Shown: positions 25,926-63,859 of the stretch, piece by piece
Layout: the number at the start of each line of letters is the position of its first letter
Numbering within the stretch: position 1 is the first letter of the stretch
NCBI GenBank assembly: GCA_012517355.1
Contig: JAAYVD010000022.1
Location: 75,011-139,010, forward strand
Direction: 5' to 3'
DNA from: Candidatus Rifleibacteriota bacterium
Lineage (GTDB): Bacteria; Muiribacteriota; Ozemobacteria; Ozemobacterales; Ozemobacteraceae
DNA: 64,000 nucleotides
Made by a program: the position numbers and the translations under genes
Notes under the pieces: generated by a model
The model's database searches: none
What the model was told of the DNA's origin: nothing
What the model saw: the letters and a program-made list of their open reading frames with translations, nothing else

Positions 25926-25927
25926 TT

Positions 25928-26557: not shown

Positions 26558-26567
26558 GGTGGTTCTC

Positions 26568-28608: not shown

Positions 28609-28647
28609 CCAAAGAAAAACCGGCGCCCCTGGGAGCAGGGACGCCGG
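28609..28647 (-). terminator. Rho-independent terminator downstream of the pilin gene
   Basis: On the minus strand the GC-rich hairpin CCGGCGUCCCUG-CUCC-CAGGGGCGCCGG is followed by UUUUUCUUU. Confidence 0.65.
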
Positions 28648-28662
28648 TATCGAGGCTCGCAG

Positions 28663-29211
28663 TTAGAATTTGACCCGGCTGACGGACACCAGGATGTCGT
28701 CGCCATCATAATTAGGGCCAGCGACGGTGGTAACCGCATCCATCGCGCCATCGGGGCCGGCAGAATGGAGGTAGATGCCTTTGTTCCAGTGATAGTACTT
28801 GATCTTGGCGTCCCAGGCATCCATCATGAATTCTTCGGGGTTGCTGTCCATGTAGGGGCCCTTCCACCGCTTGGAATAGGCGTTGATCCCCATGTTGGTG
28901 AATGTTCCGGTAACCGTATTGTTGACCAGGACATTTTTGTCGTAGGTGGCATCGAGAGCAACGGTATCCGCCGCGTTGATGGTGTTGGCCGATGAGGTGC
29001 TAGTGGTGTGGGGGAAGCGGCCGAGGTCGTTGTTGTAGTTCACCAGGGCGGTCTTCAGGTTGGTCATCGCTGCCTTGGTGGCGGCCGATTTGCCCTGGTC
29101 GGTGATGCTGCCGATCATCGGGCCGGCGACCGAGGCCAGAACCGCGATGACGATGATGACGACCATGATCTCCATCAGGGTGAAGCCTGCCCGCCTCGAA
29201 AGCCTGTTCAT
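28663..29211 (-). CDS. Type IV pilin / GspG-like major pseudopilin (prepilin with class III signal)
   Basis: RRAGFTLMEIMVVIIVIAVLA is the prepilin cleavage/methylation motif. Downstream KAAMTNLKTALVNYNNDLGRFP resembles GspG/PilA. It has its own promoter and terminator. Confidence 0.85.
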   Translation of the reverse strand: MNRLSRRAGFTLMEIMVVIIVIAVLASVAGPMIGSITDQGKSAATKAAMTNLKTALVNYNNDLGRFPHTTSTSSANTINAADTVALDATYDKNVLVNNTVTGTFTNMGINAYSKRWKGPYMDSNPEEFMMDAWDAKIKYYHWNKGIYLHSAGPDGAMDAVTTVAGPNYDGDDILVSVSRVKF

Positions 29212-35597: not shown

Positions 35598-36421
35598 GCG
35601 GCGGTCCTTCCTTGCCAGCCGAATTCCGAGAGCAGATAGGCCCATCGGATGGCAGCGGCGGGCAGCGCTTGCAGGGCCATTTCCAGCCCGAACCGCAGGA
35701 GGTCGGCGGTCTCCCAACGGTATCCCAGGCGTCGGACCGCCTCGCGCTTGACCTTGAGGGTGGCCCCCAGCACCTCTTTCACCCTGGCCATGCGGGTGGC
35801 CTGGGGCGACAGGCGGTAGTCCAGGAGAACCTCGTCCAACGCGGCCAGGCGGCCCCAGCGGGCGATCTCCAGCCACAGGAAGTAGTCCTCGGCGTACCGG
35901 AACGCTTCCCGGTAGCGAAGCCGGTGACCGGGAACCAATGAGCGGCGGATCATGACCGTGGGATGGAGGAGCGGATTGGCCCACAGCGGGGATCCAGCCA
36001 CGCGGCAGGACCGGATCCTGCACAGGCTCCGGCCGTCGCGGTCGATGTAGCGGAGGGCGGTTCCGACCACCGCCACGTCGGGGTTGGCCTCGAGGAAATC
36101 CACCTGCCGGCGGAACCGCTGCGGGTGGGCGAGGTCGTCGGCGTCCATGCGGGCGAGAAAGCGCCCCTGGCAGGCGGCGAGGCCCCGATTGAGGGCCCGG
36201 ACGATACCCGTGTTCACCGTCAGGGAGATGACCCGCAGGCGGTCGTCACGGGCGGCGGCTTCCCGGAGGAGGGAGGCCGTGTCGTCCGTGGATCCGTCAT
36301 CGACCGCCACCAGTTCGAAGTCGCCGAAGCTCTGGGCGAAGACGCTGTCCAGGGCCGGCCGGAGGTGTTCCCCTCCGTTGTAAACCGGCATCAGGACGGA
36401 AATAATGGGCGGGATCGTCGT
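35594..36421 (-). CDS. Family 2 glycosyltransferase (GT-A fold). I assume a GTG start at 36421.
   Basis: ISVLMPVYNGGEHLRPALDSVFAQSF...ELVAVDDGSTDDT...RMDADD shows the DxD/GT2 signature. The Pro/Arg-rich N-terminal 37 aa of the longest ORF look spurious. Confidence 0.75.
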   Translation of the reverse strand, partial: TTIPPIISVLMPVYNGGEHLRPALDSVFAQSFGDFELVAVDDGSTDDTASLLREAAARDDRLRVISLTVNTGIVRALNRGLAACQGRFLARMDADDLAHPQRFRRQVDFLEANPDVAVVGTALRYIDRDGRSLCRIRSCRVAGSPLWANPLLHPTVMIRRSLVPGHRLRYREAFRYAEDYFLWLEIARWGRLAALDEVLLDYRLSPQATRMARVKEVLGATLKVKREAVRRLGYRWETADLLRFGLEMALQALPAAAIRWAYLLSEFGWQGRTAA

Positions 36422-37646: not shown

Positions 37647-38852
37647 CTACTTCATCTGCTGGACGATCGAGAAGAGCGGCATGAAGACCGACAGGGCGAT
37701 GCCGCCGATCATGACGCCCATGACGACGGTCAGGATGGGAGTCAGGGCGGCGGTCAGGCCGTCGAGGGCTTCGGCCACCTCCTGGTCGAAGAAGTCGGCC
37801 GCCTTTTCCAGCATCTTGTCGAGGTTGCCGGAGTTCTCGCCGACCTCGATCATCTTCTGGACCATGGTGGGGAAGAGGTAGCTGCCCTTGATGGTGGCGG
37901 CGAGGCGTTTGCCACCCTGGACCCCGACGGCCATATCTGCGATCAGGTTTTCGAACAGCTTGTTGCCCATGACCGAACCCGTGATCTTGAGAGCGTTGAG
38001 AATGGGCACGCCGGCGGCCAGCAGGGAGCAGAAGGTGCGGCAGAAGCGGCTGACGGCGACCTTCTTGGTCAGGTTCCCAACGATGGGGGCGCGGACGGCG
38101 AACTGGTTCATCAGGGATTCGCCGATCTCGGTCTGGAGGAACACGTAGATCCCGACCACGGTGGCCGCCGTTCCTCCCAGCCACATGACATAGTTGTCCA
38201 GGAGGCTGTCCGACAAGAAGATCAGGAGCTTGGTGATGGCCGGGAGTTCGGCCTTCATCTTCTTGAACATCTTGGTGAAGTTCGGGAAGATCTTGACCAG
38301 CAGGAACACCACGCAACCTACGGCCAGCACCAGCTGCACGACCGGCATGGTCAGGGCGCCCTTGACCTTGCCGCGCATCTTCGAGTCGGCTTCGGCGAAG
38401 GCGGCCAGCCGGGCCAGGACCTTGTCGAGCATGCCGCCCGCCTCGCCGGCCTCGACCATGTTGCAGAAGATGTTGTTGAAGACCTTGGGATACTTGCGCA
38501 ACCCGGCGGAGAACGGCTGGCCGCTCTGCAGGTCCTTGCCGATCTTTTCCAGGACGCTCTTGAAGAAGGGGTTTTCCGTCTGGTCGCACATGATGCCGAC
38601 CGCCTCGACCAGGGGGATGGCGGAGCCCACCAGGGTCGACAGCTGGACGGTGAAGACCATCAGCTCCTTCGAGGAGACGCTTCCCCCGAACATGCCGCCG
38701 AACCCGCCCGCTTCCTTGGCGGCGGTGGCCTTGACGAGATAATACCCCTTGTCGGACAGGATGGAGGCGAGCTTCTGGATGCTCTCGGCCTCGATCGAAG
38801 TCTTGAGGATCTCGCCTTTGGAGTTCTTGACTTCGCAATCGTATTTCGGCAT
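37647..38852 (-). CDS. pilC: Type IV pilus / T2SS inner-membrane platform protein (GspF/PilC family)
   Basis: 401 aa. Two repeated cytoplasmic domains with three TM helices. The ...GNLDKMLEKAADFFDQEV... pattern is typical of the family. Confidence 0.9.
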   Translation of the reverse strand: MPKYDCEVKNSKGEILKTSIEAESIQKLASILSDKGYYLVKATAAKEAGGFGGMFGGSVSSKELMVFTVQLSTLVGSAIPLVEAVGIMCDQTENPFFKSVLEKIGKDLQSGQPFSAGLRKYPKVFNNIFCNMVEAGEAGGMLDKVLARLAAFAEADSKMRGKVKGALTMPVVQLVLAVGCVVFLLVKIFPNFTKMFKKMKAELPAITKLLIFLSDSLLDNYVMWLGGTAATVVGIYVFLQTEIGESLMNQFAVRAPIVGNLTKKVAVSRFCRTFCSLLAAGVPILNALKITGSVMGNKLFENLIADMAVGVQGGKRLAATIKGSYLFPTMVQKMIEVGENSGNLDKMLEKAADFFDQEVAEALDGLTAALTPILTVVMGVMIGGIALSVFMPLFSIVQQMK

Positions 38853-38884
38853 GGAACCTCCTCAGATCGATTCGCGGACAGGGC

Positions 38885-40561
38885 TCAATCGGCGCGGCAC
38901 AGGGCGAACACTTCGTCGGGGGTGGTCAACCCCTGGGTGAACTTCAGGATGATGTCGTCTTTCAGGGTTTTCATCCCGGATTGGATGGCGACCTTCATCA
39001 GGTCGTCGCCGGGGGCCTTCTGGATGATCAGGCGCCGGATGCTCTCGTTGGTATACATCACCTCGTGCACGCCGACGCGGCCCTTGTACCCGGTGGTGGC
39101 GCATTTTTCACAGCCCTTTCCCCGGTAATACGTGCCGTTGATGGCCTCGGGAGGCAGCCCGAGGGTCTGCAGGACCTCGGGGGTGATGTTCCCATCGACG
39201 TCCTTGCAGAACTTGCAGACGCGGCGGGCCAGGCGCTGGGAGACGATGCACAGGAGGGCCGCCGAGACCAGGAAGGGCTCGACGCCCATGTCGATCAGGC
39301 GGGAGGCGGTGCTGGGGGCATCGTTGGTGTGCAGGGTGGCGAACACCAGGTGGCCGGTCAAGGCCGCCTCGACCGCGATGGTGGCCGTCTCCTCGTCGCG
39401 GATCTCGCCGAGCATGATGACGTCGGGGTCTTGTCGGAGGAAGGCGCGCAGCACCTTCGAAAAGTCGAGGTCGATCTCGGGGCGCACCTGCACCTGGTTG
39501 ATCAGCTTGAGCTTGTACTCGACGGGGTTTTCGACGGTACAGATGTTCATGTCGACGCCCTTGATGGCGTTGAGGCAGGCATACAGGGTGGTCGTCTTTC
39601 CTGAGCCCGTCGGGCCGGTGACCAGGACCATGCCGTTGGGCGCGGCGATGGCTTTCTGCACCAGTCCGAAGTTGTATGGGGTGAAGCCCATTTGCTCGAG
39701 ATTGACCTGGACGTTTGATTTGTCGAGGATCCGGAGGCAGACCTTTTCTCCGTAGGCCACGGGAATGGTGTTGACGCGGAAATCGATCGGCTTGTCCATG
39801 ATCGTCATCTGGATGCGGCCGTCCTGGGGGATGCGGCGCTCGGAGATGTCCATGGATGAAAGGATCTTGAGGCGCGAGACCAGCGAGGCCTGCGCCTCGG
39901 GCTGCAGGGTCATCGAAACCATCAGGCTGCCGTCGATGCGCAGCCGCACCCGCAGTTCGCCTTCGTCGGGCTCGATATGGATGTCGCTGGCCCCTTTCTG
40001 CACCGCCTGCGTCAGGATCAGGTTGCACAGCTTGATGATCGGGGTGTCGTCGCTGGCCTTCTTCAGGGCGTCGAGTTCGCCGGCCGAGGCCTGCCCGTCC
40101 CCCATCGTGGCGAGGGCGTCGGCCATGGCGCCGGCCACGTACAGCTTGTCGAGGTTGTCGTTGATCTGGTTTTCCGAGCAGATGGCGCGCACGACCTCGC
40201 AGTTGTTCTGGAACTGGATCTCGTCGATGATGAACACGTCGAGCGGGTCGGCCATGCCGATCATCAGGCTCTTGCCGTCGAAACTGATGGGGATCAGCAG
40301 GTGCTTGCGGGCGATCTTCTCGGGCACCATCTTCAGGACCTCGGGCTTGACCTCGACCTTCGACAGGTCGACGAACGGCACCTTGAGCTGCTTTCCCAGG
40401 ATCGGCAGCAGTTTGTCCTCGGACAGGTAGCCGAGCTCGATGAGGACCTGGCCAATGCGCTTGCCGCGCTTCTTCTGCTCGGCGAGCCCGATGTTGAGCT
40501 CCTTCTCGCCGATGTGGCCGGCCTCAATGAGCATCTCGCCGATCTTCTTCCGTTTGAACAT
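38885..40561 (-). CDS. pilB: Type IV pilus assembly ATPase (GspE/PilB family)
   Basis: N-terminal GSPII_E_N-like domain. Walker A GPTGSGKTT. Asp box and His box. Tetracysteine motif CKFC...CEKC. Confidence 0.9.
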   Translation of the reverse strand: MFKRKKIGEMLIEAGHIGEKELNIGLAEQKKRGKRIGQVLIELGYLSEDKLLPILGKQLKVPFVDLSKVEVKPEVLKMVPEKIARKHLLIPISFDGKSLMIGMADPLDVFIIDEIQFQNNCEVVRAICSENQINDNLDKLYVAGAMADALATMGDGQASAGELDALKKASDDTPIIKLCNLILTQAVQKGASDIHIEPDEGELRVRLRIDGSLMVSMTLQPEAQASLVSRLKILSSMDISERRIPQDGRIQMTIMDKPIDFRVNTIPVAYGEKVCLRILDKSNVQVNLEQMGFTPYNFGLVQKAIAAPNGMVLVTGPTGSGKTTTLYACLNAIKGVDMNICTVENPVEYKLKLINQVQVRPEIDLDFSKVLRAFLRQDPDVIMLGEIRDEETATIAVEAALTGHLVFATLHTNDAPSTASRLIDMGVEPFLVSAALLCIVSQRLARRVCKFCKDVDGNITPEVLQTLGLPPEAINGTYYRGKGCEKCATTGYKGRVGVHEVMYTNESIRRLIIQKAPGDDLMKVAIQSGMKTLKDDIILKFTQGLTTPDEVFALCRAD

Positions 40562-40590
40562 GGGTCGTTCCCTTGTCGATCAGCCGCGGC

Positions 40591-41340
40591 CTAGCCGGCG
40601 GACTCCCAGTATTTGCGCCGGGCTTCCATGTAGTGCGGGTTGAGCTTGATGGCCAGCCGGAATTCGTCCATCGCCTCGTCGGGTTTGCCCCTCTTCTTCA
40701 GGATCATGCCCAGATGATAGTGCAGGTCGGCATACTCCGGATGCTCGCGCAACAGCCGGCGGTACTCCCGCTCGGCCAGGTCGAGCAGCCCCAGGTCGGT
40801 GAAGATGAGACCGAAATCGACCGTCACGCTTCCGGGGCCGAGCAGTCGGCCCATGTGGTCCTCGACCACCTGGCGGTATTCCTGCATGGCCCGGTTGAAG
40901 GCGCCCTGGTCCTGGTAGATGCGCCCGATGTAATACCGGGCGGCGGCATAGCGGGGGTTGATGGCCAGGGCGTTGGAAAAGCTGGCCAGGGCCTTCTCGA
41001 GCGCCCGGCTCTCGTAGAAGATCAGGCCCACGTTGAAATGGGCGTCGGCGAACCGGGGATTCAGGGTCAGCACCGATTCGTAGGCGGCGATGGCCTGGTC
41101 GCGATCGCCGAGCTGGCGGTAGGCGTGGCCCAGGTGGTTGAAATACACGGGGTTTTTCGGGTTCAGGTTCACCGCTTTGACGAAGCAGAACGAGGCCTTG
41201 TCGAGCTGTCCCTTGAGGAAAAACGCGTTTCCCAGGTGGAACAGGCCTTCCGGGTCCTTGGGGTGGTCCCGGAGGTGTTTGATACAGGCATCGACCACCT
41301 CGTCGAGAAGACCGGGGTCGTAGAGGGTTTCGGGCGGCAT
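40591..41340 (-). CDS. Cytoplasmic TPR-repeat protein
   Basis: About six TPR units (GNAFFLKGQLDKA, LGHAYRQLGDRDQA, ...). No signal peptide. Confidence 0.75.
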   Translation of the reverse strand: MPPETLYDPGLLDEVVDACIKHLRDHPKDPEGLFHLGNAFFLKGQLDKASFCFVKAVNLNPKNPVYFNHLGHAYRQLGDRDQAIAAYESVLTLNPRFADAHFNVGLIFYESRALEKALASFSNALAINPRYAAARYYIGRIYQDQGAFNRAMQEYRQVVEDHMGRLLGPGSVTVDFGLIFTDLGLLDLAEREYRRLLREHPEYADLHYHLGMILKKRGKPDEAMDEFRLAIKLNPHYMEARRKYWESAG

Positions 41341-51509: not shown

Positions 51510-53837
51510 GTGACCCCGACCCCTGCTCCCCGGCCGGGAGGGGGGGGGGGCGGCGCCCGTCGGGCACTTTTCTCTGGAACCCTGTTCTGGAGTGCTTTTC
51601 TGCTGTTCTCCATCCAGCCGTTGGCTGCCAAAAGGCTGTTGCCGGTGCTCGGCGGCGCGGTCGGCGTGTGGACGGGATGCCAGTTGTTCTTCCAATTGGT
51701 CCTCCTGGCAGGGTACGCGCTCGCCCACCTGGGACTGCGCGGGCTGGGGGCGGCCCGCCACCCCCCCACCCACGCTTTGTTGCTGGCCTTCGGTCTGCTG
51801 TCCGGGCCGTCCCGGCTGGGTCGGCTGGCCGGGCTGGATGCCCACTCCGCCCCGGTCTGGTTCCTCTTCCGCGAGTTGGGCGGGGCGGTGGGGTTCCCGC
51901 TGCTGGTCATGGCCGCCCTGGCTCCCGCCCTGCAGGCCTGGTTCGCCGTCGGAACCAGGCCCGGGGACGGCGATGATCCCTATCCCTTGTACGCCGCCAG
52001 CAATCTTGGCAGTCTGTCGGCGTTGCTGGCCTATCCCCTGCTCATCGAACCGTTCATTCCTCTGACCGCACAAGCCGGTTGGTGGGAAGATGGGTATTTC
52101 CTTCTGGTTCTGCTGGTCGTAGGATGCGCCGTTTCGACGGTCGCCGTGCCTGGGACCGGAGGGGCCGCGACTTCCGGTCAGGTTGCTGCCAGCGAAGGGC
52201 CGGCGAAGCCATTTTCCTCTGTCGGGCGGCCTGCCGGTCCATCCGGCTCCCCAACCATCGCTTCACCCGTCTCCTGGAGCCGCCGGTGCTCCTGGCTCGG
52301 CTGGGCGTTCCTGCCCACCAGCCTGATGCTGGGCATCACCTCCCAGACCACGATGGACATGGCCCCATTCCCTCTCCTGTGGACCCTTCCACTGGCCGTC
52401 TACCTGCTGACCTGGATGATGGCCTTCGCCCGGTCCCCGCGCTGGCGGGCGGGAGCCTGGCTGGACTGGGCCGTTCCCGGCCTCCTGGCCTGGGCGGCGG
52501 TCATCCATGTGTTGTTCGTGGTCTCCCCCGCCTGGCTGGTGGCGGGGTTCTACCTGGCCGTCCTGTTCGTGGCCGGGCTCGAATGTCACGGCCGGCTGTT
52601 CCTCGACCGCCCCGAAACTCAGGAACTGACCGGGTTCTACTTGGTGACCGCGATGGGAGGGGCCTTGGGAGGGATGTTCAACGGGTGGGTGGCGCCCCAG
52701 GTCTTCCGGCGGTTGCACGAGTTGCCGCTGGTGCTCGTGGCGATCGCCCTCGCTTTTTCCGCGGTGCGAACCCGGTCTTCGGGGTCTCTGACCCGGTTCT
52801 GGAAAGCCGCCGCCTTGCCCCTGGCCGTCGGAGGCTGCTTCCTGTGGTTTGGCGGGCTGGAAATGAATGACCAGTTCTGGTTCAAAGCGGCCTGTCTGGC
52901 GTCCGCCGTCGCCCTGGCGGCCCTGGGCGGTCTCCACGGCGTCCTGTTCGGGCCCCTCTTCGCCCTGGCCCTGGCCGGGGGAAGCCTGATCTGTTTCTCC
53001 CGTCCGGGTGTCCTCGCCGAGGCGCGGAGCTTCTTCGGGACCTATCGCATCCAGGCGAGCGCCACCGGCGCCCACCGGTATCTCATGCACGGCAACATCC
53101 ACCACGGCGGCCAGAAGTGGCTGCCTCCCGGGGAGCGAAACCGGCCTTTCTATTACTACATCCGCGAAGGGCCGGTGGGCGAGGTGTTCCGGGAACTGCG
53201 TCGGCGGCGGGGTCGCCGGATCTGCGTGGTGGGGCTCGGGGCGGGAACCCTGGCCTGCTACCTTCGCCCTTGGCAGGAGATGGTCTTTTTGGAGATCGAT
53301 CCCGTCATGGCTCGGCTGGCGGCGGATCCGTCGTTGTTTTCCTTCCTGGCCGATGCCGCGGGGCCCTGCCGCGTGGTCGAGGGGGATGCCCGCGTTTCGC
53401 TTGCCTCACGCGTTCAGGGGCCCTTCGATCTCATCGTCCTGGACGCCTATTCCTCGGACGCCATCCCCCTGCATCTGCTGACCCGGGAAGCCCTGGACGT
53501 CTATCTCTCCCGGCTCGCCCCCGACGGGTGGCTGATGTTCCACGTGTCCCACCGCACCCTCGACCTGGAGCCGGTCGTGGGCAACCTGGCTTTGGCCGCA
53601 GGACTGTCCGGACTCTCGGCCGGTTTCCGACCGGACCAGGCCTCCCAGCGGCTGAAATACGACGATGAGGACACGCCTTTCGTCTTCAGTTCCCATTGGC
53701 TCATCCTTGCCCGCTCTCCCGACCTTCTCGCCCCGTTTCGGGGCAGCCGGCTTTGGAAGTCGATCCGCGTGGCCCCGGGGTCCCCCGTATGGACGGATGA
53801 GATGTCCAGCGTCCTGTCCGCCTACACCTGGGAATGA
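51510..53837 (+). CDS. Fusion protein: N-terminal polytopic (MFS-like) membrane domain plus C-terminal spermidine-synthase-like (class I MTase fold) domain
   Basis: About 12 TM helices. The C-terminal CVVGLGAGTLACYL...FDLIVLDAYSSDAIPLHLLTREAL is a polyamine aminopropyltransferase-like motif. GTG start, with a G11 homopolymer in codons 10-15. Confidence 0.8.
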   Translation: MTPTPAPRPGGGGGGARRALFSGTLFWSAFLLFSIQPLAAKRLLPVLGGAVGVWTGCQLFFQLVLLAGYALAHLGLRGLGAARHPPTHALLLAFGLLSGPSRLGRLAGLDAHSAPVWFLFRELGGAVGFPLLVMAALAPALQAWFAVGTRPGDGDDPYPLYAASNLGSLSALLAYPLLIEPFIPLTAQAGWWEDGYFLLVLLVVGCAVSTVAVPGTGGAATSGQVAASEGPAKPFSSVGRPAGPSGSPTIASPVSWSRRCSWLGWAFLPTSLMLGITSQTTMDMAPFPLLWTLPLAVYLLTWMMAFARSPRWRAGAWLDWAVPGLLAWAAVIHVLFVVSPAWLVAGFYLAVLFVAGLECHGRLFLDRPETQELTGFYLVTAMGGALGGMFNGWVAPQVFRRLHELPLVLVAIALAFSAVRTRSSGSLTRFWKAAALPLAVGGCFLWFGGLEMNDQFWFKAACLASAVALAALGGLHGVLFGPLFALALAGGSLICFSRPGVLAEARSFFGTYRIQASATGAHRYLMHGNIHHGGQKWLPPGERNRPFYYYIREGPVGEVFRELRRRRGRRICVVGLGAGTLACYLRPWQEMVFLEIDPVMARLAADPSLFSFLADAAGPCRVVEGDARVSLASRVQGPFDLIVLDAYSSDAIPLHLLTREALDVYLSRLAPDGWLMFHVSHRTLDLEPVVGNLALAAGLSGLSAGFRPDQASQRLKYDDEDTPFVFSSHWLILARSPDLLAPFRGSRLWKSIRVAPGSPVWTDEMSSVLSAYTWE

Positions 53838-55317: not shown

Positions 55318-56271
55318 TCAGAACTGCAGGTTGTCCTCCCTGGTCCAGCCTTCTTTGCGGCCCTGATGGTAGGTGATTTCGAACCATTGGTATTTGCCGA
55401 TGCGCTTGCAGCTTTTGATCTTCACCACCACACCTTTGGGGACCTTGCCCAGGAGAGCGGCCTTGGTGCTGGGGGCATTTCTGACCTTGGCGCCTGAATC
55501 GGCGACGACGGTGCCCTCTGCGGGCAGTTTGTCGGCGGAGGCGAATCCCTTCACGGTTTCGGCCGGAGGAGCGGGTTTCGCGACGGCCACGCTGACCGTC
55601 TGCGCCAGGGCCATGGCCTTCAGAGCGGCGGGATCGACGGGAACGGGCTTGCGGGTCGTGGGGTCGATGATCACCCGTGTCGTACCGCTCCCACTCTCAG
55701 GCGGAATGCCGGTAAGGGTGTCCTTCGGTCCGACGATCAGCAGGTCGTCCCTGGTCCAACCTACCTTCTTGTTGAAATCCCATTTTACCTGGGTCCAGCC
55801 GTTCTTACGGTCGATGACGTGACCCCGTGTGCCGTTGCCAATCTTCATGACCATCTTGCCTGAGACGTCCGGGATCTCACGGACGTTGATCCCGTTCCCA
55901 TTGGCGAAGGCGACCAGCTTGACATGCGGGTCGGGGGAGGGGGAACCGGCCTTGGCGGGCGGGGGGGCCGGTGGGACTGGTGTGGCGGCTGCAGAGGGAC
56001 CCGGTGATGACTCCGGGGTGGACGGAGCAGGCGAAGGGACGGGATTCGGTGCCCCGGACGGGGTGGCTGTGTAGAGGACCTGCGTCGCACCCTGGGAAGG
56101 GGCTGCCTCGGCGGTGGCAAGAACCCCTCCAGAAGGGGCGATGGCACCTGCTGGCGCGGGAAGACCACTGCGCGACTCGAGGTAGGTGAACATCTGTTTT
56201 CCCATGAAGATCCCTACGGCGACGACCGAAACCACGATCACCAATACGGAGAACACTTTGATCTTCTTCAA
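55318..56271 (-). CDS. Signal-anchored protein with two bacterial SH3 (SH3b) domains and Pro/Ala/Ser-rich linkers
   Basis: TTG start with AGGAG SD. TM anchor VFSVLVIVVSVVAVGIF. Two SH3b-like modules (NVREIPDVSGKMVMKIGNGTRGHVIDRKNGWTQVKW and KVRNAPSTKAALLGKVPKGVVVKIKSCKRIGKYQWFEITY). Confidence 0.7.
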   Translation of the reverse strand: MKKIKVFSVLVIVVSVVAVGIFMGKQMFTYLESRSGLPAPAGAIAPSGGVLATAEAAPSQGATQVLYTATPSGAPNPVPSPAPSTPESSPGPSAAATPVPPAPPPAKAGSPSPDPHVKLVAFANGNGINVREIPDVSGKMVMKIGNGTRGHVIDRKNGWTQVKWDFNKKVGWTRDDLLIVGPKDTLTGIPPESGSGTTRVIIDPTTRKPVPVDPAALKAMALAQTVSVAVAKPAPPAETVKGFASADKLPAEGTVVADSGAKVRNAPSTKAALLGKVPKGVVVKIKSCKRIGKYQWFEITYHQGRKEGWTREDNLQF

Positions 56272-56526: not shown

Positions 56527-56553
56527 AAAAAAACAACCCCGGAAGGGGTTGTT
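56526..56553 (-). terminator. Rho-independent terminator after the Flp pilin gene. It is symmetric with A/T tracts on both sides, so it is probably bidirectional.
   Basis: AAAAAAA-CAACCCCGGAAGGGGUUG-UUUUU. Confidence 0.65.
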
Positions 56554-56581
56554 TTTGGGGGGCAGACGGAACCGTCCAGCT

Positions 56582-56818
56582 TCATGGACTCGTGCTGTCC
56601 CCGGTCGACCCACCGGTCGAACCACCCGTGGACCCACCGGAATCTCCTCCACCCAGAACCGTTTTCAGGGTTTCGGAAATGGGGCCCCAGAACATTCCGG
56701 AGATGACGTCACCCATGGCCATCATGGCCACCAAAGCGACCATGGCAACCAGTCCAATCAATAGAGCGTATTCTACCAAACCTTGTCCTCTCCTTGACCT
56801 ACACCGCCGCATGCTCAT
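56582..56818 (-). CDS. flp: Flp/Fap-family type IVb pilin
   Basis: RGQGLVEYALLIGLVAMVALVAMMAMG is the Flp motif (G/xxxxEY, hydrophobic stretch). 78 aa. GGAGG SD. A C-terminal GGSTGGSTGGSTG repeat. Confidence 0.85.
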   Translation of the reverse strand: MSMRRCRSRRGQGLVEYALLIGLVAMVALVAMMAMGDVISGMFWGPISETLKTVLGGGDSGGSTGGSTGGSTGDSTSP

Positions 56819-56897
56819 GGTCGACCTCCAAAGGGATTTTCCTGATTACTAGCAAGAAGAATACCATGGCCGCCCGGGGTGGCGCATTTTCGGGAAA

Positions 56898-57788
56898 ATG
56901 GTAAAATGGCCCATGCCCGATTCCGAAAGCCCTTTGGGGCGCGACGTGATGGCTATCCTGGATGCCCTTCCCCTCGGAGAGGACGGCGGAATCGCCTATC
57001 ATCCGGGAGGGCCTTCCTCGGTCGAGGCGACTGCCCTGGCTTGGCTGGCGGCTTTCTCGCATGGGTGTCCAGAGCGTCTCGCCCGTGGACTCGCCTGGGT
57101 AGCCGCCTGTCAGAAGGCGGATGGCGGAACCCCTCTATACAGCGATTTTCCCGAGGAAGGCGGATGGGCCACGGCGCAGGCCACCGTCCTTTTTGCCAAG
57201 GCCGGGTGGCAAGGCCATGTGGCGCGGGGCTTGGCGTTCCTGGCGGACCGACGGTCCCTGACCTTTCCCGTGTCAGACAACGGAGAGGTGCCCATCGACA
57301 CCACCATTCCCGGATGGCCATGGCGGCAAGGTTCCTTCGGGTGGGTGGAGCCGACCGCCTGGGCGATCCTGGCTTTCGAGGCGGGCGGGCGGGGAGATCA
57401 TCCCCGTGCGGAGGAAGGGCGCCGTCTTCTCCTGGATCGGAGCATCGACACGGGGGGATGGAACTACGGCAACCGGGAGGCATTCGACCAGGAGCTCGTC
57501 CCCTTCTGGGACACGACCGCCCTGGCCATTCTCGCTCTCGGCAAATCCTTTCGTGATGACAAGATCGCCAAGGGTTTGGATTTCCTCGAACGGAACCTCG
57601 GTGATATCGCCTCTCCATACAGTCTGGCTCTGAGCCTGTTGGCCCTCGAGGCAGGAAACCGGTCCGTTCCCGGGGCGAAGGAGCGTCTCCGGGGGCTCCT
57701 CATGGACGGCCACCAGGTCCCGGGGAATTCGGTGGCGGTTTCCTGGGCGCTGCTCGCCCTGGGACCCCGAAAGGTCTTCCCGCCATGA
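56898..57788 (+). CDS. Prenyltransferase / squalene-oxidase-repeat (terpenoid cyclase-like alpha/alpha toroid) protein
   Basis: Repeated motifs of the DGGW..Y / GGWNYG type (DGGTPLYSDFPEEGGW, DTGGWNYGNRE). The start may be the second ATG at 56913. Confidence 0.55.
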   Translation: MVKWPMPDSESPLGRDVMAILDALPLGEDGGIAYHPGGPSSVEATALAWLAAFSHGCPERLARGLAWVAACQKADGGTPLYSDFPEEGGWATAQATVLFAKAGWQGHVARGLAFLADRRSLTFPVSDNGEVPIDTTIPGWPWRQGSFGWVEPTAWAILAFEAGGRGDHPRAEEGRRLLLDRSIDTGGWNYGNREAFDQELVPFWDTTALAILALGKSFRDDKIAKGLDFLERNLGDIASPYSLALSLLALEAGNRSVPGAKERLRGLLMDGHQVPGNSVAVSWALLALGPRKVFPP

Positions 57789-58753
57789 ACCGGAGAACAT
57801 TTCTCCAGTGGTTGATGGCTTCGATCGGTGGACTCTGCATTGGTCATGGGCTGGGGCAGACCCGGTTGCCTCTGAGCAGGGTCACCCTCCTGGAGGCTTC
57901 TTCCTATGATGTTGACTTGGTCAGCGGCCTCATGGCCGCCATGGGTGAGGACGGGCTGGCCCTGTCCGGCAAGCGGGTTCTTCTGAAGCCCAACTTCGTC
58001 GAGGTTCATCCGGGCCGGCCGATCAATACTCATCCATCGTTGATCCGACAGGTGGCCGAAGCCTGCCTGCGGCTTGGGGCGCGGGAGGTTCTGGTGGGGG
58101 AGGCGGCCGGGCATCGCCGTGACCCGTGGTTTTCGGTCATGAACCCGGACTTCATAAAAAGTCTTCCGGCGGGTGTCCGGTGCGTGGATCTCAATTATTC
58201 CAGGGTCGTCCGGGTCAGGAACACCAGTGCATATGGTGCCCTCGCTGAATTCCTGCTCCCGCTCCCTCTGCTTTCCTCTGATGTGGTCATCGGACTTCCG
58301 AAAATGAAGACCCATCATTGGATGGGAGTCACCCTCGCCATGAAGAATCTTTTTGGGGTGATGCCCGGGGTCATTTACGGATGGCCGAAAAACACCCTTC
58401 ACGTCAGTGGCCTGGGGCAGACGATCGTCGATCTGGCGCGTTGCGTTCCAACCCATTACCACATCGTTGACGGGATCACCGGCATGGAAGGTGACGGACC
58501 CATCCTCGGCACCCCGCTGCAGGTGGGTGTCGTGGTGGCTGGACGGGATATCCTGGCGGTCGATACCACCGCCGCACGCATCATGGGTTTCGATCCGATG
58601 CAGGTGCCCTACATGCGGGTGGCGGCCTGGCACCTGCCGGGGTTTGGCGAACATCGGAAGACCTATGCGGGGAAGCCGATGACGGCCTTTGCCCGGGATT
58701 TCCAGTGTCTGGAGAAATACCAGGAGTGGAAACTCAACCGGCTAAAAAAATAA
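57785..58753 (+). CDS. TAT-signal DUF362-family protein
   Basis: The N-terminus RRTFLQWLMASIGGLCIG is a twin-arginine signal. The conserved core resembles DUF362 (LLKPNFVEVHPGRPINTHPSLIRQVAE...GLPKMKTHHWMGVTLAMKN). Confidence 0.6.
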   Translation: MNRRTFLQWLMASIGGLCIGHGLGQTRLPLSRVTLLEASSYDVDLVSGLMAAMGEDGLALSGKRVLLKPNFVEVHPGRPINTHPSLIRQVAEACLRLGAREVLVGEAAGHRRDPWFSVMNPDFIKSLPAGVRCVDLNYSRVVRVRNTSAYGALAEFLLPLPLLSSDVVIGLPKMKTHHWMGVTLAMKNLFGVMPGVIYGWPKNTLHVSGLGQTIVDLARCVPTHYHIVDGITGMEGDGPILGTPLQVGVVVAGRDILAVDTTAARIMGFDPMQVPYMRVAAWHLPGFGEHRKTYAGKPMTAFARDFQCLEKYQEWKLNRLKK

Positions 58754-58792
58754 TGGGGCCTGGCGGCCCCAGAAATTGTTCTGAAAAACGCT

Positions 58793-58966
58793 TTAGGACG
58801 CGGCGCTGCTGAGGGTGGTGCCGATGCTGTTGAACATCTTGCTGACGCTGCCGCCGGAGAGGGTCAGGGCGACGATGGCGACGATGGCGATGAGGCCGAT
58901 GATCAGCGCGTACTCAACGAGGCCTTGTCCTTCTTCTTCGCGCACAAACCGACTGATCAGTTCCAT
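58793..58966 (-). CDS. flp: Second Flp/Fap-family pilin (57 aa), absent from the supplied ORF track
   Basis: The minus-strand translation is MELISRFVREEEGQGLVEYALIIGLIAIVAIVALTLSGGSVSKMFNSIGTTLSSAAS. It has a GGAGG-like SD. Confidence 0.8.
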   Translation of the reverse strand: MELISRFVREEEGQGLVEYALIIGLIAIVAIVALTLSGGSVSKMFNSIGTTLSSAAS

Positions 58967-59150: not shown

Positions 59151-61100
59151 CTACCGTGGGGGGGCCGCCCTCGTGATCCCCCACGGGTCAACACCATCGG
59201 GGAAGCCCGTTTTCAGGCGGTAATCATAGGTTCCCCCGTCCACATCCTTGACGAAGACTGGGCGGGTGGACAGATTCCCGGTTGTCGAGGCGCATCCGAC
59301 ATGGTCCTGCCCGGTGGGGAACCCGGAAATCGCGTTGGGGCCGAAAACCGGGGCCGGAGAATCCCCAGCGAGGTGCTCGATGCCCTTCACGCCTTGGCCG
59401 CCCGGACTACGGTCAGCCACGAGGATGTTCTTCTGGACGAGCATGACCCCTTCGTCGATCCTGATCCCGTAAGGGGAATCAAACGTGTTATAGGTGACGT
59501 CCGGGAGGAGGGCGGCGATATGCAGGCCAACGCCCGTCGCCGAGACGAAAAGGTTGTTGCTGACCAGGAGCGTGCCCCCGGACTCCTCTGTAAACAAGCC
59601 GAATTCGACGAATTCCAGGATGTTGTTTCCGATGAAGGAGATTTCGGAATTCTGGGAGGAACTGATTCCCCGGAGGCAATGGAAGAGGGTGCACCCACTG
59701 ATCTTGGTTCCAATGTTCTCCCTGAGATCCATTCCCGTGGCGGAAAACTCGATCGTCCAGCTGGCCAGGGACAAACCCTGGGTCTGGCTGGCGACCACCC
59801 CCGTCTGGCAGTGATGCAGGCGGGAATCGGCAAAGGTGCCCGTGGCGTTGGTCAGCAGGAGTCCCGTCGCGGCATATCCCAACGTGACGTTGACGAGGGC
59901 TGACTTTTGGGGGGTGTTGGACGTGAACGTGATCCCTCCCCAATCCCCGGCAGCGGGCAGGGCTTTCCCGGAGGACAGGACGATGGGGAAATCGTTGCCG
60001 GCGCTGGCGATCAAGGCTCCCTTGACGGTGATCTCCACCAGATTGGGGTTCCCCCACTTCATGGCATCGTAGTCGGCCATGACCACCTCGACCCCCGGAT
60101 CGATGTGCAGGATGCCGGTCGATTCGATCTTCAGGTCCCCCGCGAGATGGTAGGGGCTGTTGCCACGGGTCCAGGTGACTTCCTGGGTGAGGTTCCCGGG
60201 AATGAGCATGGAAACAGGCTCGGAAGGGCCGCTTTCGTTGCCTGCCAGATCGACGGCGGTGACCCGGTAGAAATATTTCTTCCCGGTGATGACGCCGGCA
60301 TCGACAAACCGCTCCTGGCCACGGGAAATCAGGACCCCCTCGATGGCCGAGAAGGTTCCCGCCAGGCTTTCGCCGCGATAGATGCGGTAACCCTTGAGGT
60401 CCCTTTCCGAATTGGCCGACCAGAAGATCGTGACCGAGTTCGGCAGTTCGGTGAGCGCCGCGGCGACCCCTTTCGGGGGCTCGGGAAGCTTCTCGTCGTC
60501 AAACGTCGCCTGGGTCACGAACGAATGTCCGGAGGAGGTCTCGGACGGCCGATTCTGCCGTGAGGCCACGATCCGGAAGAAATACTTGGTGTTGGGTTTC
60601 AGGTCGGTGATTTCCAGGGAATGCAGGGTGGCATACTGTCCGCCCGGTTCGCGGACGGTCCTGCCCAGCGAAGAGGTCTCCCCGTATTCGACGATCCCGT
60701 TGGTGTAATCGGTGGTCTTCCAGGAGATCAGGGCGGTGGTGGCCGAGACCTCCTTCACCTCCACGTCGCGGAAATCGAAGCTGGCGGTTTCCATGACGAC
60801 TTTCTGCAGGACCGAGGTCGCGCCCGAATAGATGGCCGCCCGGAAGGAGGTGTCGCGGTACCCGGCGAGCTGGGCGACGAATTCCTGTTCCCCGAAACCG
60901 ATCCCCTCAACGTGGAACTTCCCATCGGTGCCAGTCCTTCCCCAGCGGGTCCGGTCGACGGTCCAGCTGACCAGCACGGACGGAAGGACCACCCCGGCGG
61001 TGTCGTAGACGGTTCCTTCGAGGGCCCCTTCGCGCGGGGTGACATTGTTGCCCGTGTCGCAGCCGATGAGCAGGAATCCGGTCATGACGGCCAGGATCAT
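59151..61100 (-). CDS. Lipoprotein with a carboxypeptidase-regulatory-like domain, two fibronectin type III domains and a right-handed parallel beta-helix (pectate-lyase fold) domain
   Basis: Lipobox MILAVMTGFLLIGC. FN3 signatures PNTKYFFRIVA and KKYFYRVTAVDLAGNES. The beta-helix region has repetitive N/G/S-rich strands. The longer ORF start at 61289 is an alternative. Confidence 0.7.
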   Translation of the reverse strand: MILAVMTGFLLIGCDTGNNVTPREGALEGTVYDTAGVVLPSVLVSWTVDRTRWGRTGTDGKFHVEGIGFGEQEFVAQLAGYRDTSFRAAIYSGATSVLQKVVMETASFDFRDVEVKEVSATTALISWKTTDYTNGIVEYGETSSLGRTVREPGGQYATLHSLEITDLKPNTKYFFRIVASRQNRPSETSSGHSFVTQATFDDEKLPEPPKGVAAALTELPNSVTIFWSANSERDLKGYRIYRGESLAGTFSAIEGVLISRGQERFVDAGVITGKKYFYRVTAVDLAGNESGPSEPVSMLIPGNLTQEVTWTRGNSPYHLAGDLKIESTGILHIDPGVEVVMADYDAMKWGNPNLVEITVKGALIASAGNDFPIVLSSGKALPAAGDWGGITFTSNTPQKSALVNVTLGYAATGLLLTNATGTFADSRLHHCQTGVVASQTQGLSLASWTIEFSATGMDLRENIGTKISGCTLFHCLRGISSSQNSEISFIGNNILEFVEFGLFTEESGGTLLVSNNLFVSATGVGLHIAALLPDVTYNTFDSPYGIRIDEGVMLVQKNILVADRSPGGQGVKGIEHLAGDSPAPVFGPNAISGFPTGQDHVGCASTTGNLSTRPVFVKDVDGGTYDYRLKTGFPDGVDPWGITRAAPPR

Positions 61101-61285
61101 GGGCACCAAGGCGGTCGGGGAGGGAAGCCAACGGCCGCCCGTGGCTGGTCGTGACGGGGTGGGCCGGCGCTCGGTGAGGGGGGAGGGCCCCATGGCCATG
61201 CGCGAAGATGGCGTTTCGCGCTGCCATCCGCGGCGGCCAATGGGCGCTTCCGACATCCTGTCGGTCGGACCCTTCCCGTCACTCC

Positions 61286-63859
61286 TCATTTGACGCGCCC
61301 CAGGGCTTCGTGCACGAAGCGTTCGATCTGGGAATGCCGGGGGGCGTGTTTCTGGGCCTTGACGAAGCAGGCCTTGGCCTCGGGCATGAGGCGCTTCTCC
61401 TCGTAGGCGAGCCCCAGGTTGAAGCAGGCGTAGGGATCCTGGGGGGTCAGGTTGACCACCCGCACCAGGGTTTCGATGGCCGAGTCGGGGTCATGGTGGT
61501 CCATGTAGGCCATGCCGAGGTTGTAGAGGGCATAGGTGTCCTCGGGGTTGATCTCGATGGCATGGGTGAAAGCCATGATCGCCTCGTCGAGCTGCCCTTG
61601 TTCGTAGAAGGACATGCCGAGGTGGGAATACGAGTAGGCGTCGTCGGAATCGAGTTCGATGGCCTTGGAGAAGGCCTTGATGGCCATCTGGAGGCGTCCG
61701 GAGTTCTTGTAGATGACTCCCAGGCTGTATTGGGAAAAGGCGTCGTCGGGGTTGAGTTCGATGGCCTTCTTGAAGGACTCCTCGGACCGGGGAAGGTCGC
61801 CCAGGGACCGATAGATGGTGCCGAGGAGATAGTGGGCGAAGAACTGCTTGCCGTCGAGCCGGATGGCCATCATGACGCAGTTGAGGGCGTTCTCGATCTG
61901 GTTGAGGTTCTTGTAGACCGCGCCGAGACTGACCAGGGCGGGTACGTGATCCTCCTTGATGCGCAGGAGTTCTTCCAGGACGTCCCGGGACTCCTCGATC
62001 AGGCCGTTGTTCTTGTAGATGAGTCCGAGGACGAACCGGCTCTCGATATCGCCGGGGTTGAGACGGATCGTCTTCTTGATGGCCTGGACCGCTTCCTCGA
62101 GCATGCCCTGGTTGAAGTAGGCCTTGCCGAGGTGGAAGAAGGCTTCGCGGAACTCGGGGTCGAGTTCGATGGTCCGTTGCCAGGCGCGGATGGCATCGGT
62201 GGAATGGCCGATGCTCTTGTAGGCGATGCCCAACTGCAGGTGGGCATGGGAGAACTCCGGGTCGATGGCGATGGCCTTCTCCCACTCCCGGATGGCTTCG
62301 TCGAGCATGCCCTTTTCCTTGTAGGCGAGGCCGAGCCGGTAATGGGCCCCGGCGTTTTCGGGGTTGATCGCCACCGAGCGCTTCCAGCGCACCAGGTTCT
62401 GGTCGTCGATGCCCTTGAGGCGGTAGATCACCTCGAGGTTGTAGTGGGCGAAGGAGTCGTAGGGGTTGATGGCCAGCACCTTCCGGTATTCGAGAATGGC
62501 CTCGTCGTACATCTCCTTGTTCTTATAGGCGGAAGCCAGCTTGTAGTGAGCCTCGGCGTTGTTGGGATTGTTGACGATCTCGGTCTTGTACCGCTCGATC
62601 ATCATGTCGAGTTCACTCTTGGCCCGCACCGGGGGTTGCGGGGGTTTCTCGGGGGTGTCCTGGCTCTCGTTCTTCTTGCGCTGGTCGGCGGCCTTGCGCC
62701 AGTGGCTGACAGCCAGTTCGCACTGCCCCTTGACGTCGTAGATCTCTCCCAGCAGGTCGTTGGCCCGATGCAGGCCCTGGTCGAGGTAGAGCGCCCGCTT
62801 CAACTCACCCACCGCCTCGTCGAGCATGCCGCGGTCCTTGTAGGCCTGGCCGAGGCTGAAGTGCAGTTCGGCGTCGTTCGGGTTGAGGCCATTCTCGAGC
62901 TTGAATTCGTCGATGGCCTTCTGGGTGTCCCCCTTCTTGCGCAGGACGGTGCCGATGAAGAAATGCAGCCGGGGGAACTTCGGATCGAGCTTGAGGGCGC
63001 GGCGGAACTCGGCCAGGGCAGCGTCGTCCATGGACTTGCGCAGCAGGGCCTGGCCCAGAAAGACCCGGGCCTCGACCAGGTCGGGGCTGATGTCCAGGAC
63101 GCGCTTGAGCGCCTCGATGGTCTCGTCGAACCGGTTGGCGTAGAAGTGGGCGAGGCCGAGGTTGAGGAAGGTAAAGGCGTTTTCCGGGTTGAGGTCGATC
63201 GACTGTTTCAGCACGGCGACCGCCTCGTCATACTGCCGCGCGGCGATGAAAGCCCGGCCCAGTTGGCACAGGGCGTAGGAATCCTGCGGGTTGAGCAGGA
63301 CGGCCTTCTTGAACTCGACCACCGCTTTCTTGCTGCGTCCCACCTCCAGGTAGGTGGAGCCCAGCGCGAAATGGGCGTAGGCGTAGTCGTGATTCAGGTC
63401 GATGGCGTTGCGGAACCGGACGATGGCCTCGTCGTAGAGTTTCTTCAATTTGAAGATCAAGCCGAGCTGCAGGTGCGCGAAGGCGAAATCGGGTTTCAGG
63501 GAGATGGCCTTCTTGAACCGGATGATGGCCTCGTCGAACATGCCCTTGTGCTTGTAGATCACCCCGAGGTTGGCATACGGGAAGGCGTAGTTGTTGTTGA
63601 ACATGATCGCCTTCTTGAACTCCGTGATCGCCTCGTTGATCAGGCCCTTGTTCCGGTACGACAGGCCCAGGAAATTGTGGGCGTAGGCGTCCTTCTGGTT
63701 GATCGAAATGGCTTCCTTGAAGACGTTGATCGCCTCGTCGTTCTCCCCGGTCATCTCGAGGGCCCGGGCCAACTGGTAGTAGGCGAAAAAGTCGCGGGGA
63801 TTGGCGCTGATGCGCTTCTTGCAATCCTTGATGATCTGTTCGAACTTCTGTTCTCTCAT
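61286..63859 (-). CDS. Large TPR-repeat protein (about 24 TPR units)
   Basis: An uninterrupted series of 34-aa units of the form AxAxxxLGxxYxxxGxxxEAIxxFxKAIxLxP. Confidence 0.85.
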   Translation of the reverse strand: MREQKFEQIIKDCKKRISANPRDFFAYYQLARALEMTGENDEAINVFKEAISINQKDAYAHNFLGLSYRNKGLINEAITEFKKAIMFNNNYAFPYANLGVIYKHKGMFDEAIIRFKKAISLKPDFAFAHLQLGLIFKLKKLYDEAIVRFRNAIDLNHDYAYAHFALGSTYLEVGRSKKAVVEFKKAVLLNPQDSYALCQLGRAFIAARQYDEAVAVLKQSIDLNPENAFTFLNLGLAHFYANRFDETIEALKRVLDISPDLVEARVFLGQALLRKSMDDAALAEFRRALKLDPKFPRLHFFIGTVLRKKGDTQKAIDEFKLENGLNPNDAELHFSLGQAYKDRGMLDEAVGELKRALYLDQGLHRANDLLGEIYDVKGQCELAVSHWRKAADQRKKNESQDTPEKPPQPPVRAKSELDMMIERYKTEIVNNPNNAEAHYKLASAYKNKEMYDEAILEYRKVLAINPYDSFAHYNLEVIYRLKGIDDQNLVRWKRSVAINPENAGAHYRLGLAYKEKGMLDEAIREWEKAIAIDPEFSHAHLQLGIAYKSIGHSTDAIRAWQRTIELDPEFREAFFHLGKAYFNQGMLEEAVQAIKKTIRLNPGDIESRFVLGLIYKNNGLIEESRDVLEELLRIKEDHVPALVSLGAVYKNLNQIENALNCVMMAIRLDGKQFFAHYLLGTIYRSLGDLPRSEESFKKAIELNPDDAFSQYSLGVIYKNSGRLQMAIKAFSKAIELDSDDAYSYSHLGMSFYEQGQLDEAIMAFTHAIEINPEDTYALYNLGMAYMDHHDPDSAIETLVRVVNLTPQDPYACFNLGLAYEEKRLMPEAKACFVKAQKHAPRHSQIERFVHEALGRVK

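Follow-up and report, generated by a model that had tools for sequence, protein, structure and literature searches.

Two Flp prepilin genes bracket a toroid–DUF362 gene pair that recurs beside pilin genes in several bacterial phyla

A four-gene locus was characterized in a 64,000-nucleotide stretch of DNA from Candidatus Rifleibacteriota (contig JAAYVD010000022.1, positions 75,011 to 139,010; hereafter the window). Two minus-strand genes encoding small Flp-type prepilins, here called Flp1 and Flp2, bracket two plus-strand genes, one for a protein with an (alpha/alpha)6 toroid fold and one for a DUF362 protein with a twin-arginine translocation (Tat) signal; all four open reading frames (ORFs) were confirmed at the coordinates given for them (Table 1). 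The stop codon of the toroid gene and the start codon of the DUF362 gene share the sequence ATGA, a 4-bp overlap. A preliminary description of this DNA is corrected here as to strand and annotation: both Flp genes lie on the strand opposite to the toroid–DUF362 pair, and the 57-amino-acid (aa) Flp gene, which had been called unannotated, is listed like the other one among the publicly available genes of the source contig, where it carries a Flp_Fap hit. Sequence around the locus could be read across the window, with a gene table for 4.7 kb beyond it (locus L001), out of a metagenome contig of 173 kb (ERZ928041). Proteins of the window share 99-100% identity with those of a Candidatus Riflebacteria assembly.

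Both Flp products have the organization of class III prepilins. Flp1, with a basic leader of 11 aa, reads MSMRRCRSRRG/QGLVEYALLIGLVAMVALVAMMAMG...GGGDSGGSTGGSTGGSTGDSTSP, and Flp2, with an acidic leader of 13 aa, reads MELISRFVREEEG/QGLVEYALIIGLIAIVAIVALTLSGG...TTLSSAAS and would leave a mature pilin of 44 aa; in each, the predicted cleavage site G/QGLVEY leads into a hydrophobic helix of at least 18 uncharged residues. Flp2 passes the Pfam Flp_Fap model, while Flp1 scores 18.1 bits against it, under the cutoff of 32.2, and passes Class_IIIsignal (PF04021; 26.4 versus 23.7 bits). The GQGLVEY motif and hydrophobic-helix core are invariant across 12 aligned relatives. A strict scan of the 64 kb for a class III leader followed by an uncharged helix returned only Flp1, Flp2 and one GspG-like type IV pilin; the two Flp ORFs are therefore not chance occurrences. 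The tail of Flp1 is composed of Gly, Ser and Thr, contains (GGST)3 and ends ...STSP; the repeat derives from a 12-nt unit present in 3.3 copies (56601-56640).

Each Flp gene also carries its own expression signals, with a ribosome-binding site (GGAGG for Flp1, AAGGAGG for Flp2) 5 nt before the ATG. The hairpin following Flp1 has a predicted folding free energy of -23.8 kcal/mol (z = -4.05), and none of 200 shuffled sequences folded as well; an A-run and a T-run border its stem, and it can therefore act as a terminator in both directions. The hairpin of Flp2 lies within the 39 bp that separate the stop codons of the convergent DUF362 and Flp2 genes. These results bear out what the preliminary description had said of the prepilins, namely two proteins of 78 and 57 aa with a processing motif, a Shine-Dalgarno sequence for each, a strong bidirectional terminator on one and a C-terminal (GGST)3 repeat in the first, and they add a hairpin for the second. 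No named NCBIfam family was found for Flp1, Flp2 or the toroid protein. As pilin genes, both are unremarkable additions to a known family, and from their sequences Flp1 and Flp2 are predicted to be processed by a prepilin peptidase and assembled into a filament.

Table 1. Features of the four-gene locus, its neighbours and the type IV filament genes of the window
Feature	Coordinates	Strand	Description	Basis
Flp1	56582..56818	-	Flp-type prepilin, 78 aa	Pfam Class_IIIsignal, motif scan, orthologues
Flp1 terminator	56529..56556	-	Intrinsic terminator hairpin, 12-bp stem AAAAACAACCCC/GGGGTTGTTTTT	RNA fold
Toroid protein	56898..57788	+	(alpha/alpha)6 toroid of one domain, 296 aa (291 aa from an alternative start at 56913)	AlphaFold, Foldseek
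DUF362 protein	57785..58753	+	DUF362 (PF04015), 322 aa	Pfam, 158.7 bits versus threshold of 24, profile positions 1-200 of 200
Flp2 terminator	58754..58771	-	Hairpin, 7-bp GC stem then TTATTTTTTT	Terminator scan, RNA fold
Flp2	58793..58966	-	Flp prepilin, 57 aa	Pfam Flp_Fap (PF04964), 36.0 bits versus cutoff of 32.2
Left neighbour	55318..56271	-	SH3-domain protein, 317 aa	Pfam SH3_3; same place in L003, L004
Right neighbour	59151..61289	-	fn3 / right-handed beta-helix (NosD-like) protein, 712 aa	Pfam; same place in L001, L004
Filament block 1	22493-29211
Secretin (block 1)	22493-24640
Two unknown genes (block 1)
PilO (block 1)
PilM-PilN fusion (block 1)
GspG-like pilin (block 1)	28663-29211
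AglB-like protein (between blocks)	29333-31507		Oligosaccharyltransferase
YfhO-like protein (between blocks)	31722-34100		GT-C glycosyltransferase
B12-radical-SAM protein (between blocks)	34143-36023		B12 / radical S-adenosylmethionine (SAM) type
GT2 (between blocks)			Glycosyltransferase family 2
DUF2304 (between blocks)
Filament block 2	37647-41340
PilC (block 2)	37647-38852
PilB (block 2)	38885-40561		With MshEN domain
TPR protein (block 2)			Tetratricopeptide repeat protein

The toroid protein has no signal peptide. Its AlphaFold model (predicted local distance difference test, pLDDT, 92) consists of 12 helices forming an (alpha/alpha)6 barrel, for which the best Foldseek matches (8pak and 8paj at the top) were single-domain class II terpene cyclases and the beta subunit of Rab geranylgeranyltransferase, at template modelling (TM) scores of about 0.6 and 12-20% identity. 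A profile of the family retrieved squalene-hopene cyclase in the PDB with E = 4e-16, and the protein itself scored 20.8 bits against Pfam SQHop_cyclase_C, under the cutoff of 26.1. The DxDD motif (D.DD) was found in 0/33 family members, and no Cys or His column that might supply zinc ligands was conserved in at least 80% of these 33 sequences. Because of these absences, identification as a terpene cyclase or a zinc prenyltransferase was rejected. Of the earlier label, a terpenoid-cyclase-like protein with prenyltransferase repeats, the toroid fold stands, whereas the catalytic motifs of such enzymes are lacking; a role in binding or specificity is the likelier one for this subunit. The family comprises 946 representative clusters (50% identity) at E <= 1e-30, with at least 587 matches among GTDB species representatives.

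The DUF362 protein begins M-N-R-R-T-F-L-Q-W-L-M-A-S-I-G-G-L-C-I-G, a twin-arginine motif (MNRRTFLQ; general consensus S/T-R-R-x-F-L-K) and hydrophobic stretch within approximately residues 1-30. R3, R4 and F6 are conserved in at least 90% of orthologues, and the Tat-signal family PF10518 is recorded for several homologues, in keeping with the original annotation as a Tat-exported DUF362 protein. NCBIfam gave only a far sub-threshold match to Npun_F2552, and no redox cofactor motif such as an Fe-S Cys cluster is present. Alignment of the family revealed 57 invariant columns, including H110, H177, H178, K187 and H206. The structural model (pLDDT 86) gave, as its top 18 Foldseek matches in the PDB, exclusively LarA-family nickel-pincer racemases, at low TM-scores of 0.35-0.43, and Pfam clan CL0471 holds both DUF362 and the LarA domain (PMC11770544). 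R78 (conserved in at least 90%) and the invariant H110, H177/H178, K187 and H206 are separated by 32, 67, 10 and 19 residues; in LarA1, the cofactor Arg, Lys and His and the catalytic His pair (R75, H108, H174, K184, H200) have spacings of 33, 66, 10 and 16 (PMC11770544). With spacings this similar, the exported protein may carry a cofactor of the pincer type. None of larB, larC or larE turned up among the scanned window ORFs, in which no dedicated test for them was made.

To place the locus in a wider context, we analysed 82 loci, 80 of which were the top-ranking tblastn hits of a single toroid query. A DUF362 gene directly follows the toroid gene in 78 of the 82, in at least eight phyla: Riflebacteria, Acidobacteriota/Aminicenantes, Planctomycetota, Gemmatimonadota, Desulfobacterota, Nitrospirota, Chloroflexota and Bacteroidota. 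Pilin genes are concentrated around this pair. The density of pilin-type ORFs is 0.435/kb within 500 bp of the pair, 0.126/kb at 500-1000 bp and 0.02-0.035/kb at 1.5-10 kb, an approximately 15-fold enrichment within 500 bp, and a pilin gene lies within 1.5 kb in 30 of the 82 loci. Two unrelated pilin classes accompany the pair. In Riflebacteria, Planctomycetota, Chloroflexota and Bacteroidota the linked pilin is Flp, and in Acidobacteriota/Aminicenantes a type IVa pilA gene lies 180-375 bp upstream of the pair on the same strand, after pilB-pilT-pilC-pilS-pilR. Tad genes are found within 10 kb of the pair in 19 loci; canonical tad genes adjoin it in Gemmatimonadota, Planctomycetota and others, and at locus L021 it sits among genes for Flp, an A24 peptidase, TadE and CpaB.

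The arrangement seen in the window is itself conserved, as the preliminary description had proposed to check. Flp genes flank the pair in eight other Riflebacteria-type loci (L003, L004, L016, L018, L020, L033, L035 and the metagenomic L087), in a layout with one basic-leader Flp gene divergent from the toroid gene and one to four acidic-leader Flp genes convergent with the DUF362 gene, and it is kept within Riflebacteria down to 32-45% toroid identity. The upstream class has a long tail and the downstream class is 57-61 aa in length. Orthologues of Flp1 occupy the same divergent position in L003, L004, L016, L033 and L035. Those of Flp2, present singly or in tandem runs of up to four, are found at the convergent position, as in the window, in L004, L016, L018, L020, L033, L035 and L087. 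At L018, in another Riflebacteria assembly, four tandem near-identical 58-aa Flp genes lie downstream of the pair (11961-14574). Given this recurrent linkage, the genes between the Flp genes are not intruders but companions of type IV filament loci. The preliminary description was accordingly right about the parts, that is the prepilins, the toroid, the Tat-signal DUF362 protein and a window free of Tad genes, and mistaken in treating them as orphan pilins that happen to flank unrelated genes; the pair is a conserved companion of pilin genes across phyla.

Several features tie the toroid and DUF362 to each other. In addition to their recurrent order and, in the window, their overlap, the two are fused into a single ORF of 642-713 aa in six loci (L026, L039, L046, L080, L082 and L084). 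From gene order, overlap and fusion together, we infer that the toroid and DUF362 work as a complex. The Tat motif is found on one side of the pair, in 69 of 78 DUF362 proteins and 2 of 78 toroid proteins, and this asymmetry suggests that the toroid is co-exported with DUF362. The fused ORFs lie at about 10000-11900 in each locus, mostly in Gemmataceae. Clustering of neighbouring genes revealed no third universally conserved gene, in an analysis made noisy by spurious overlapping ORFs in high-GC DNA.

A second correlate of the pair lies in the pilins. Pair-adjacent pilins of unrelated families have short Gly/Ser/Thr tails that end ...GS, ...AS or ...SS, a [G/A/S]-Ser terminus. As a control we used 80 metagenome loci holding Flp genes of the GQGLVEYAL type. 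Here the terminus was present in 3/3 Flp genes with the pair nearby and in 7/104 with no pair, or 2/23 when at least 2 kb of flank was available on both sides. In the combined data 29 of 35 pair-adjacent Flp proteins have it, compared with 2 of 23 without the pair (Fisher p = 1.7e-8; 18/22 versus 2/19 when counted per locus, p = 5.8e-6), although these p-values are indicative only, because the loci are phylogenetically non-independent. Type IV pilins behave in a similar manner, with the terminus in 7 of 10 encoded beside the pair and 0 of 6 encoded in the same loci at least 5.5 kb away; the window's GspG-like pilin ends ...VKF. Of the two pilins studied here, Flp2 (...SSAAS) has the serine end typical of pair-adjacent pilins, and Flp1 (...TSP) departs from it. 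Small membrane ORFs ending [G/A/S]-Ser, which might have been hidden substrates, were sought within 2 kb of the pair in the 52 loci lacking a nearby pilin, and none was found.

The window itself contains no Tad machinery, as the preliminary description had stated for the vicinity of the pilins. Pfam searches of approximately 48 ORFs revealed no CpaF/TadA, TadB/C, CpaB, TadE or A24 peptidase, tblastn with Tad queries gave no match in the 64 kb, and the gene table covering the adjoining 4.7 kb contains no Tad gene. Likewise, TadV, CpaF, TadB/C, CpaB and TadE were absent from seven other Riflebacteria loci, each read to within 10 kb. The suggestion that orphan Flp genes are unusual was rejected: of 15 control Flp loci that could be read for 4 kb or more in both directions, 11 lacked the pair and Tad genes alike. 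Lone Flp genes are thus common, and a lack of Tad genes nearby is for that reason not remarkable. Machinery of the type IVa or type II secretion system (T2SS) kind is present in the window in two blocks (Table 1); no prepilin peptidase was found in the window. The glycosyltransferases between the blocks suggest that genes for glycosylation of pilins or the cell surface are embedded in the pilus locus.

Other features of the window lie outside these subjects. The SH3-domain protein and the fn3/NosD-like protein are the conserved left and right neighbours of the locus in Riflebacteria and possible functional members of it. Farther to the left, a 775-aa protein (51510-53837, plus strand) has no Pfam hit and matches the NCBIfam model 'fused MFS/spermidine synthase' (MFS, major facilitator superfamily) at 51 bits (cutoff 40); together with flanking unknowns of 313 and 266 aa it forms a block kept beside the locus in L003 and L004. 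Two adjacent paralogous proteins with HAMP and adenylate/guanylate-cyclase domains are encoded at 396-2420 and 2342-5350 on the plus strand, followed by tRNA-Arg(CCT) at 5593-5680, and a very long minus-strand ORF of 2532 aa occupies 8212-15810, with a GC content at third codon positions (GC3) of 0.90. Overall GC content is 0.68-0.75 in the first 22 kb, falls to 0.57-0.59 at 26-32 kb, where the pilin and glycosyltransferase genes lie, and is 0.60-0.67 thereafter.

We propose that the region is a pilin cassette in which the pair forms a pilin-dedicated periplasmic accessory complex acting on the C-terminal tail of the pilin, a reading to which we give somewhat better than even weight. Two monocistronic, strongly signalled Flp prepilin genes would bracket a two-gene operon for this complex. 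DUF362 would fold in the cytoplasm, possibly with a cofactor, bind the signal-less toroid and carry it over the inner membrane by means of its own Tat signal, in the manner known as hitch-hiking. In the periplasm, the toroid would bind the short Gly/Ser/Thr-rich pilin tail ending in [G/A/S]-Ser, much as a prenyltransferase beta subunit engages a CaaX tail, and DUF362, the proposed catalytic subunit, would modify or process the terminal Ser before the pilin is assembled. Whatever the chemistry, we infer that the pilin tail is the substrate of the pair; in this genome Flp2, not Flp1, would match the substrate pattern. The prepilin peptidase and the assembly ATPase would have to be encoded elsewhere. 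Besides the conserved pairing, the folds, the linkage to pilin genes and the C-terminal signature, two considerations led us to favour an accessory complex. A class III leader places the C-terminus of the pilin in the periplasm, exposed and within reach of a Tat-exported complex, and there are precedents in TfpO and TfpM, which are encoded beside a pilin gene and act on a C-terminal Ser or Thr of the pilin (PMC9829042). A more specific version, which we offer tentatively and hold to be less likely than not, is that the Tat-exported, LarA-like DUF362 protein and the prenyltransferase-like toroid form a heterodimer, in which the toroid recognizes the [G/A/S]-Ser end of Flp and type IVa pilins and the enzyme alters the terminal Ser before assembly, for example by oxidation, epimerization or capping. 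The DUF362 protein would possibly be the first exported nickel-pincer-type enzyme.

A number of observations weigh against a pilin-dedicated complex. More than half of the loci (52 of 82) lack a pilin gene within 1.5 kb of the pair, some of them with Tad genes within 10 kb and many on short contigs. The six fused toroid–DUF362 proteins have no Tat motif, no signal peptide and no pilin nearby, so that the complex is not periplasmic or pilin-linked everywhere; this sub-branch is probably cytoplasmic and put to a different use. A C-terminal Ser is missing from Flp1 and from several of its orthologues. The toroid, with no recognizable catalytic motif, could equally bind a glycan, and the likeness of DUF362 to LarA is a lead, given that the TM-scores are low and the residues correspond by spacing only. 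The set of loci is moreover biased toward one toroid query. Its members are phylogenetically non-independent, and the p-values consequently overstate certainty.

The main rival to the accessory complex is that the pair works in the periplasm as an enzyme on some other part of the envelope, for instance an exopolysaccharide, a lipid-linked sugar or a surface glycan. It would travel with adhesion and pilus loci through shared regulation or through a contribution to the same adhesive surface; the C-terminal Ser would then mark pilins glycosylated by a separate oligosaccharyltransferase, and the pair would only supply or trim the glycan. Such a role agrees with the many loci without an adjacent pilin, with the structural matches of the (alpha/alpha)6 fold, which include the glycan hydrolases PssZ, BcsZ and MmpH, with the small 2-hydroxy acids and sugar acids used by LarA-family enzymes (PMC11770544), and with the pilin C-terminal Ser or Thr being a known site of O-glycosylation (PMC9829042). 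Among individual loci, a gene for a YfhO-like GT-C membrane glycosyltransferase is convergent to the DUF362 gene at L007 (11738-14095, minus strand), in a cluster with the same position in six other Aminicenantes loci, and a PAP2-family phosphatase gene follows the pair on an Acidobacteriota chromosome (L006, 7835-8899). These neighbours make a link to lipid-carrier-dependent glycosylation possible, and fit a pilin-tail complex and a glycan enzyme alike. We nevertheless consider a glycan enzyme unlikely. The pair and the pilin genes are very tightly adjacent, with a peak at or below 500 bp, and in Acidobacteriota the pair directly follows pilA on the same strand; the linkage spans two pilin classes and many phyla, and no glycosyltransferase is common to all loci.

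Two further explanations deny the pair any dedicated connection with pili, and both seem to us very improbable. Chance neighbourhood, implicit in the preliminary description, would make the Flp genes stray paralogues, leftovers that are served by a distant Tad system or unused, and DUF362 a protein of redox type. The window without Tad genes, the frequency of lone Flp genes in metagenomes and the score of Flp1 below the Pfam Flp_Fap threshold all agree with it, and it is largely refuted by the retention of the layout down to 32-45% toroid identity in Riflebacteria, the roughly 15-fold enrichment of pilin genes beside the pair across phyla and a C-terminal motif that tracks the presence of the pair. 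Also against it, each Flp gene still has an undamaged processing motif, its own ribosome-binding site and its own terminator, and the toroid lacks DxDD and zinc ligands. Slightly less credible still is a cassette resembling those for ribosomally synthesized and post-translationally modified peptides (RiPPs), in which the tandem 'Flp' ORFs would be precursor peptides, the toroid and DUF362 their tailoring enzymes, and the product a secreted peptide rather than a pilus. The toroid fold is common to lanthionine cyclases, small precursors do occur in one to four near-identical tandem copies (as at L018) and their C-terminal motif is conserved; the partners of the pair, however, include canonical tad loci and full-length type IVa pilins of 170-308 aa encoded next to pilBTC and downstream of pilSR, the leaders belong to the class III signal peptides and have an invariant Glu at +5, and no Cys or His that could form a zinc site of the LanC type is conserved in the toroid.

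The pilin-tail complex that we favour would belong to a known kind, the pilin-adjacent accessory gene; what is new is the use of DUF362 and of a single-domain toroid as the families concerned. No publication in the literature library searched ties either family to pili, and the apparent mentions of DUF362 in PMC12423673 proved to be DUF3623 and were discarded. The toroid–DUF362 module and its C-terminal-Ser correlate appear to be undescribed. To our knowledge, neither DUF362, a large family without assigned function that belongs to the LarA clan, nor the toroid family has been linked to pili before. The pair would serve two evolutionarily distinct pilin classes in at least eight, mostly uncultured, phyla. 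If correct, this would place DUF362 in a biological context for the first time, indicate a pilin modification of a new sort on or around the C-terminal Ser, and make a Tat-dependent event part of the biogenesis of type IV filaments, and the combination of a [G/A/S]-Ser pilin with the gene pair would serve as a marker for predicting modified pili in metagenomes.

Each component of the proposed complex resembles a known system in part. DUF362 falls into one Pfam clan with LarA, has LarA enzymes as its top 18 structural matches, at low TM-scores, and carries Arg, His and Lys residues at similar spacings; unlike LarA, it is shorter (322 versus approximately 424 aa) and has a Tat signal, an obligate toroid partner and a link to pilin genes. 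The toroid has the (alpha/alpha)6 fold of class II terpene cyclases and of the beta subunits of protein prenyltransferases, and its family profile matches squalene-hopene cyclase; prenyltransferase beta engages its protein substrate by the C-terminal tail, the analogy drawn on here. It differs in being a single domain of about 290 aa without DxDD or zinc-binding Cys/His, which scores under the Pfam cutoff, and in having DUF362 rather than an alpha subunit as its partner. As a pair, the two recall the Tat hitch-hikers, such as the hydrogenase small and large subunits and DmsAB, in which one of two translationally coupled partners carries the Tat signal, whereas here co-export is a putative step and there is no redox motif of the Fe-S Cys type.

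At the level of the locus, the nearest counterparts are the Tad/Flp (type IVc) loci, among them flp-tad of Aggregatibacter and pilA-cpa of Caulobacter, which likewise encode small prepilins with a class III leader, a G/XXXXEY site and a hydrophobic helix; in other phyla the pair adjoins Flp, A24 peptidase, TadE, CpaB, secretin and CpaF-like genes, whereas in the window the pilin genes bracket a toroid–DUF362 operon, which is part of no described tad locus. TfpO/PilO, TfpM and TfpW offer a further parallel, with an accessory gene adjoining the major pilin gene and a pilin that ends in Ser or Thr, the residue modified by TfpO and TfpM (PMC9829042). TfpO and TfpM are polytopic oligosaccharyltransferases of the inner membrane, and Pfam scans gave no relationship of the toroid or DUF362, both modelled as soluble folds, to oligosaccharyltransferases, the Wzy_C type included. 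Here, by contrast, a soluble toroid is paired with a soluble, Tat-exported, LarA-like protein, in a module that, unlike TfpO, TfpM and TfpW, would serve Flp pilins as well.

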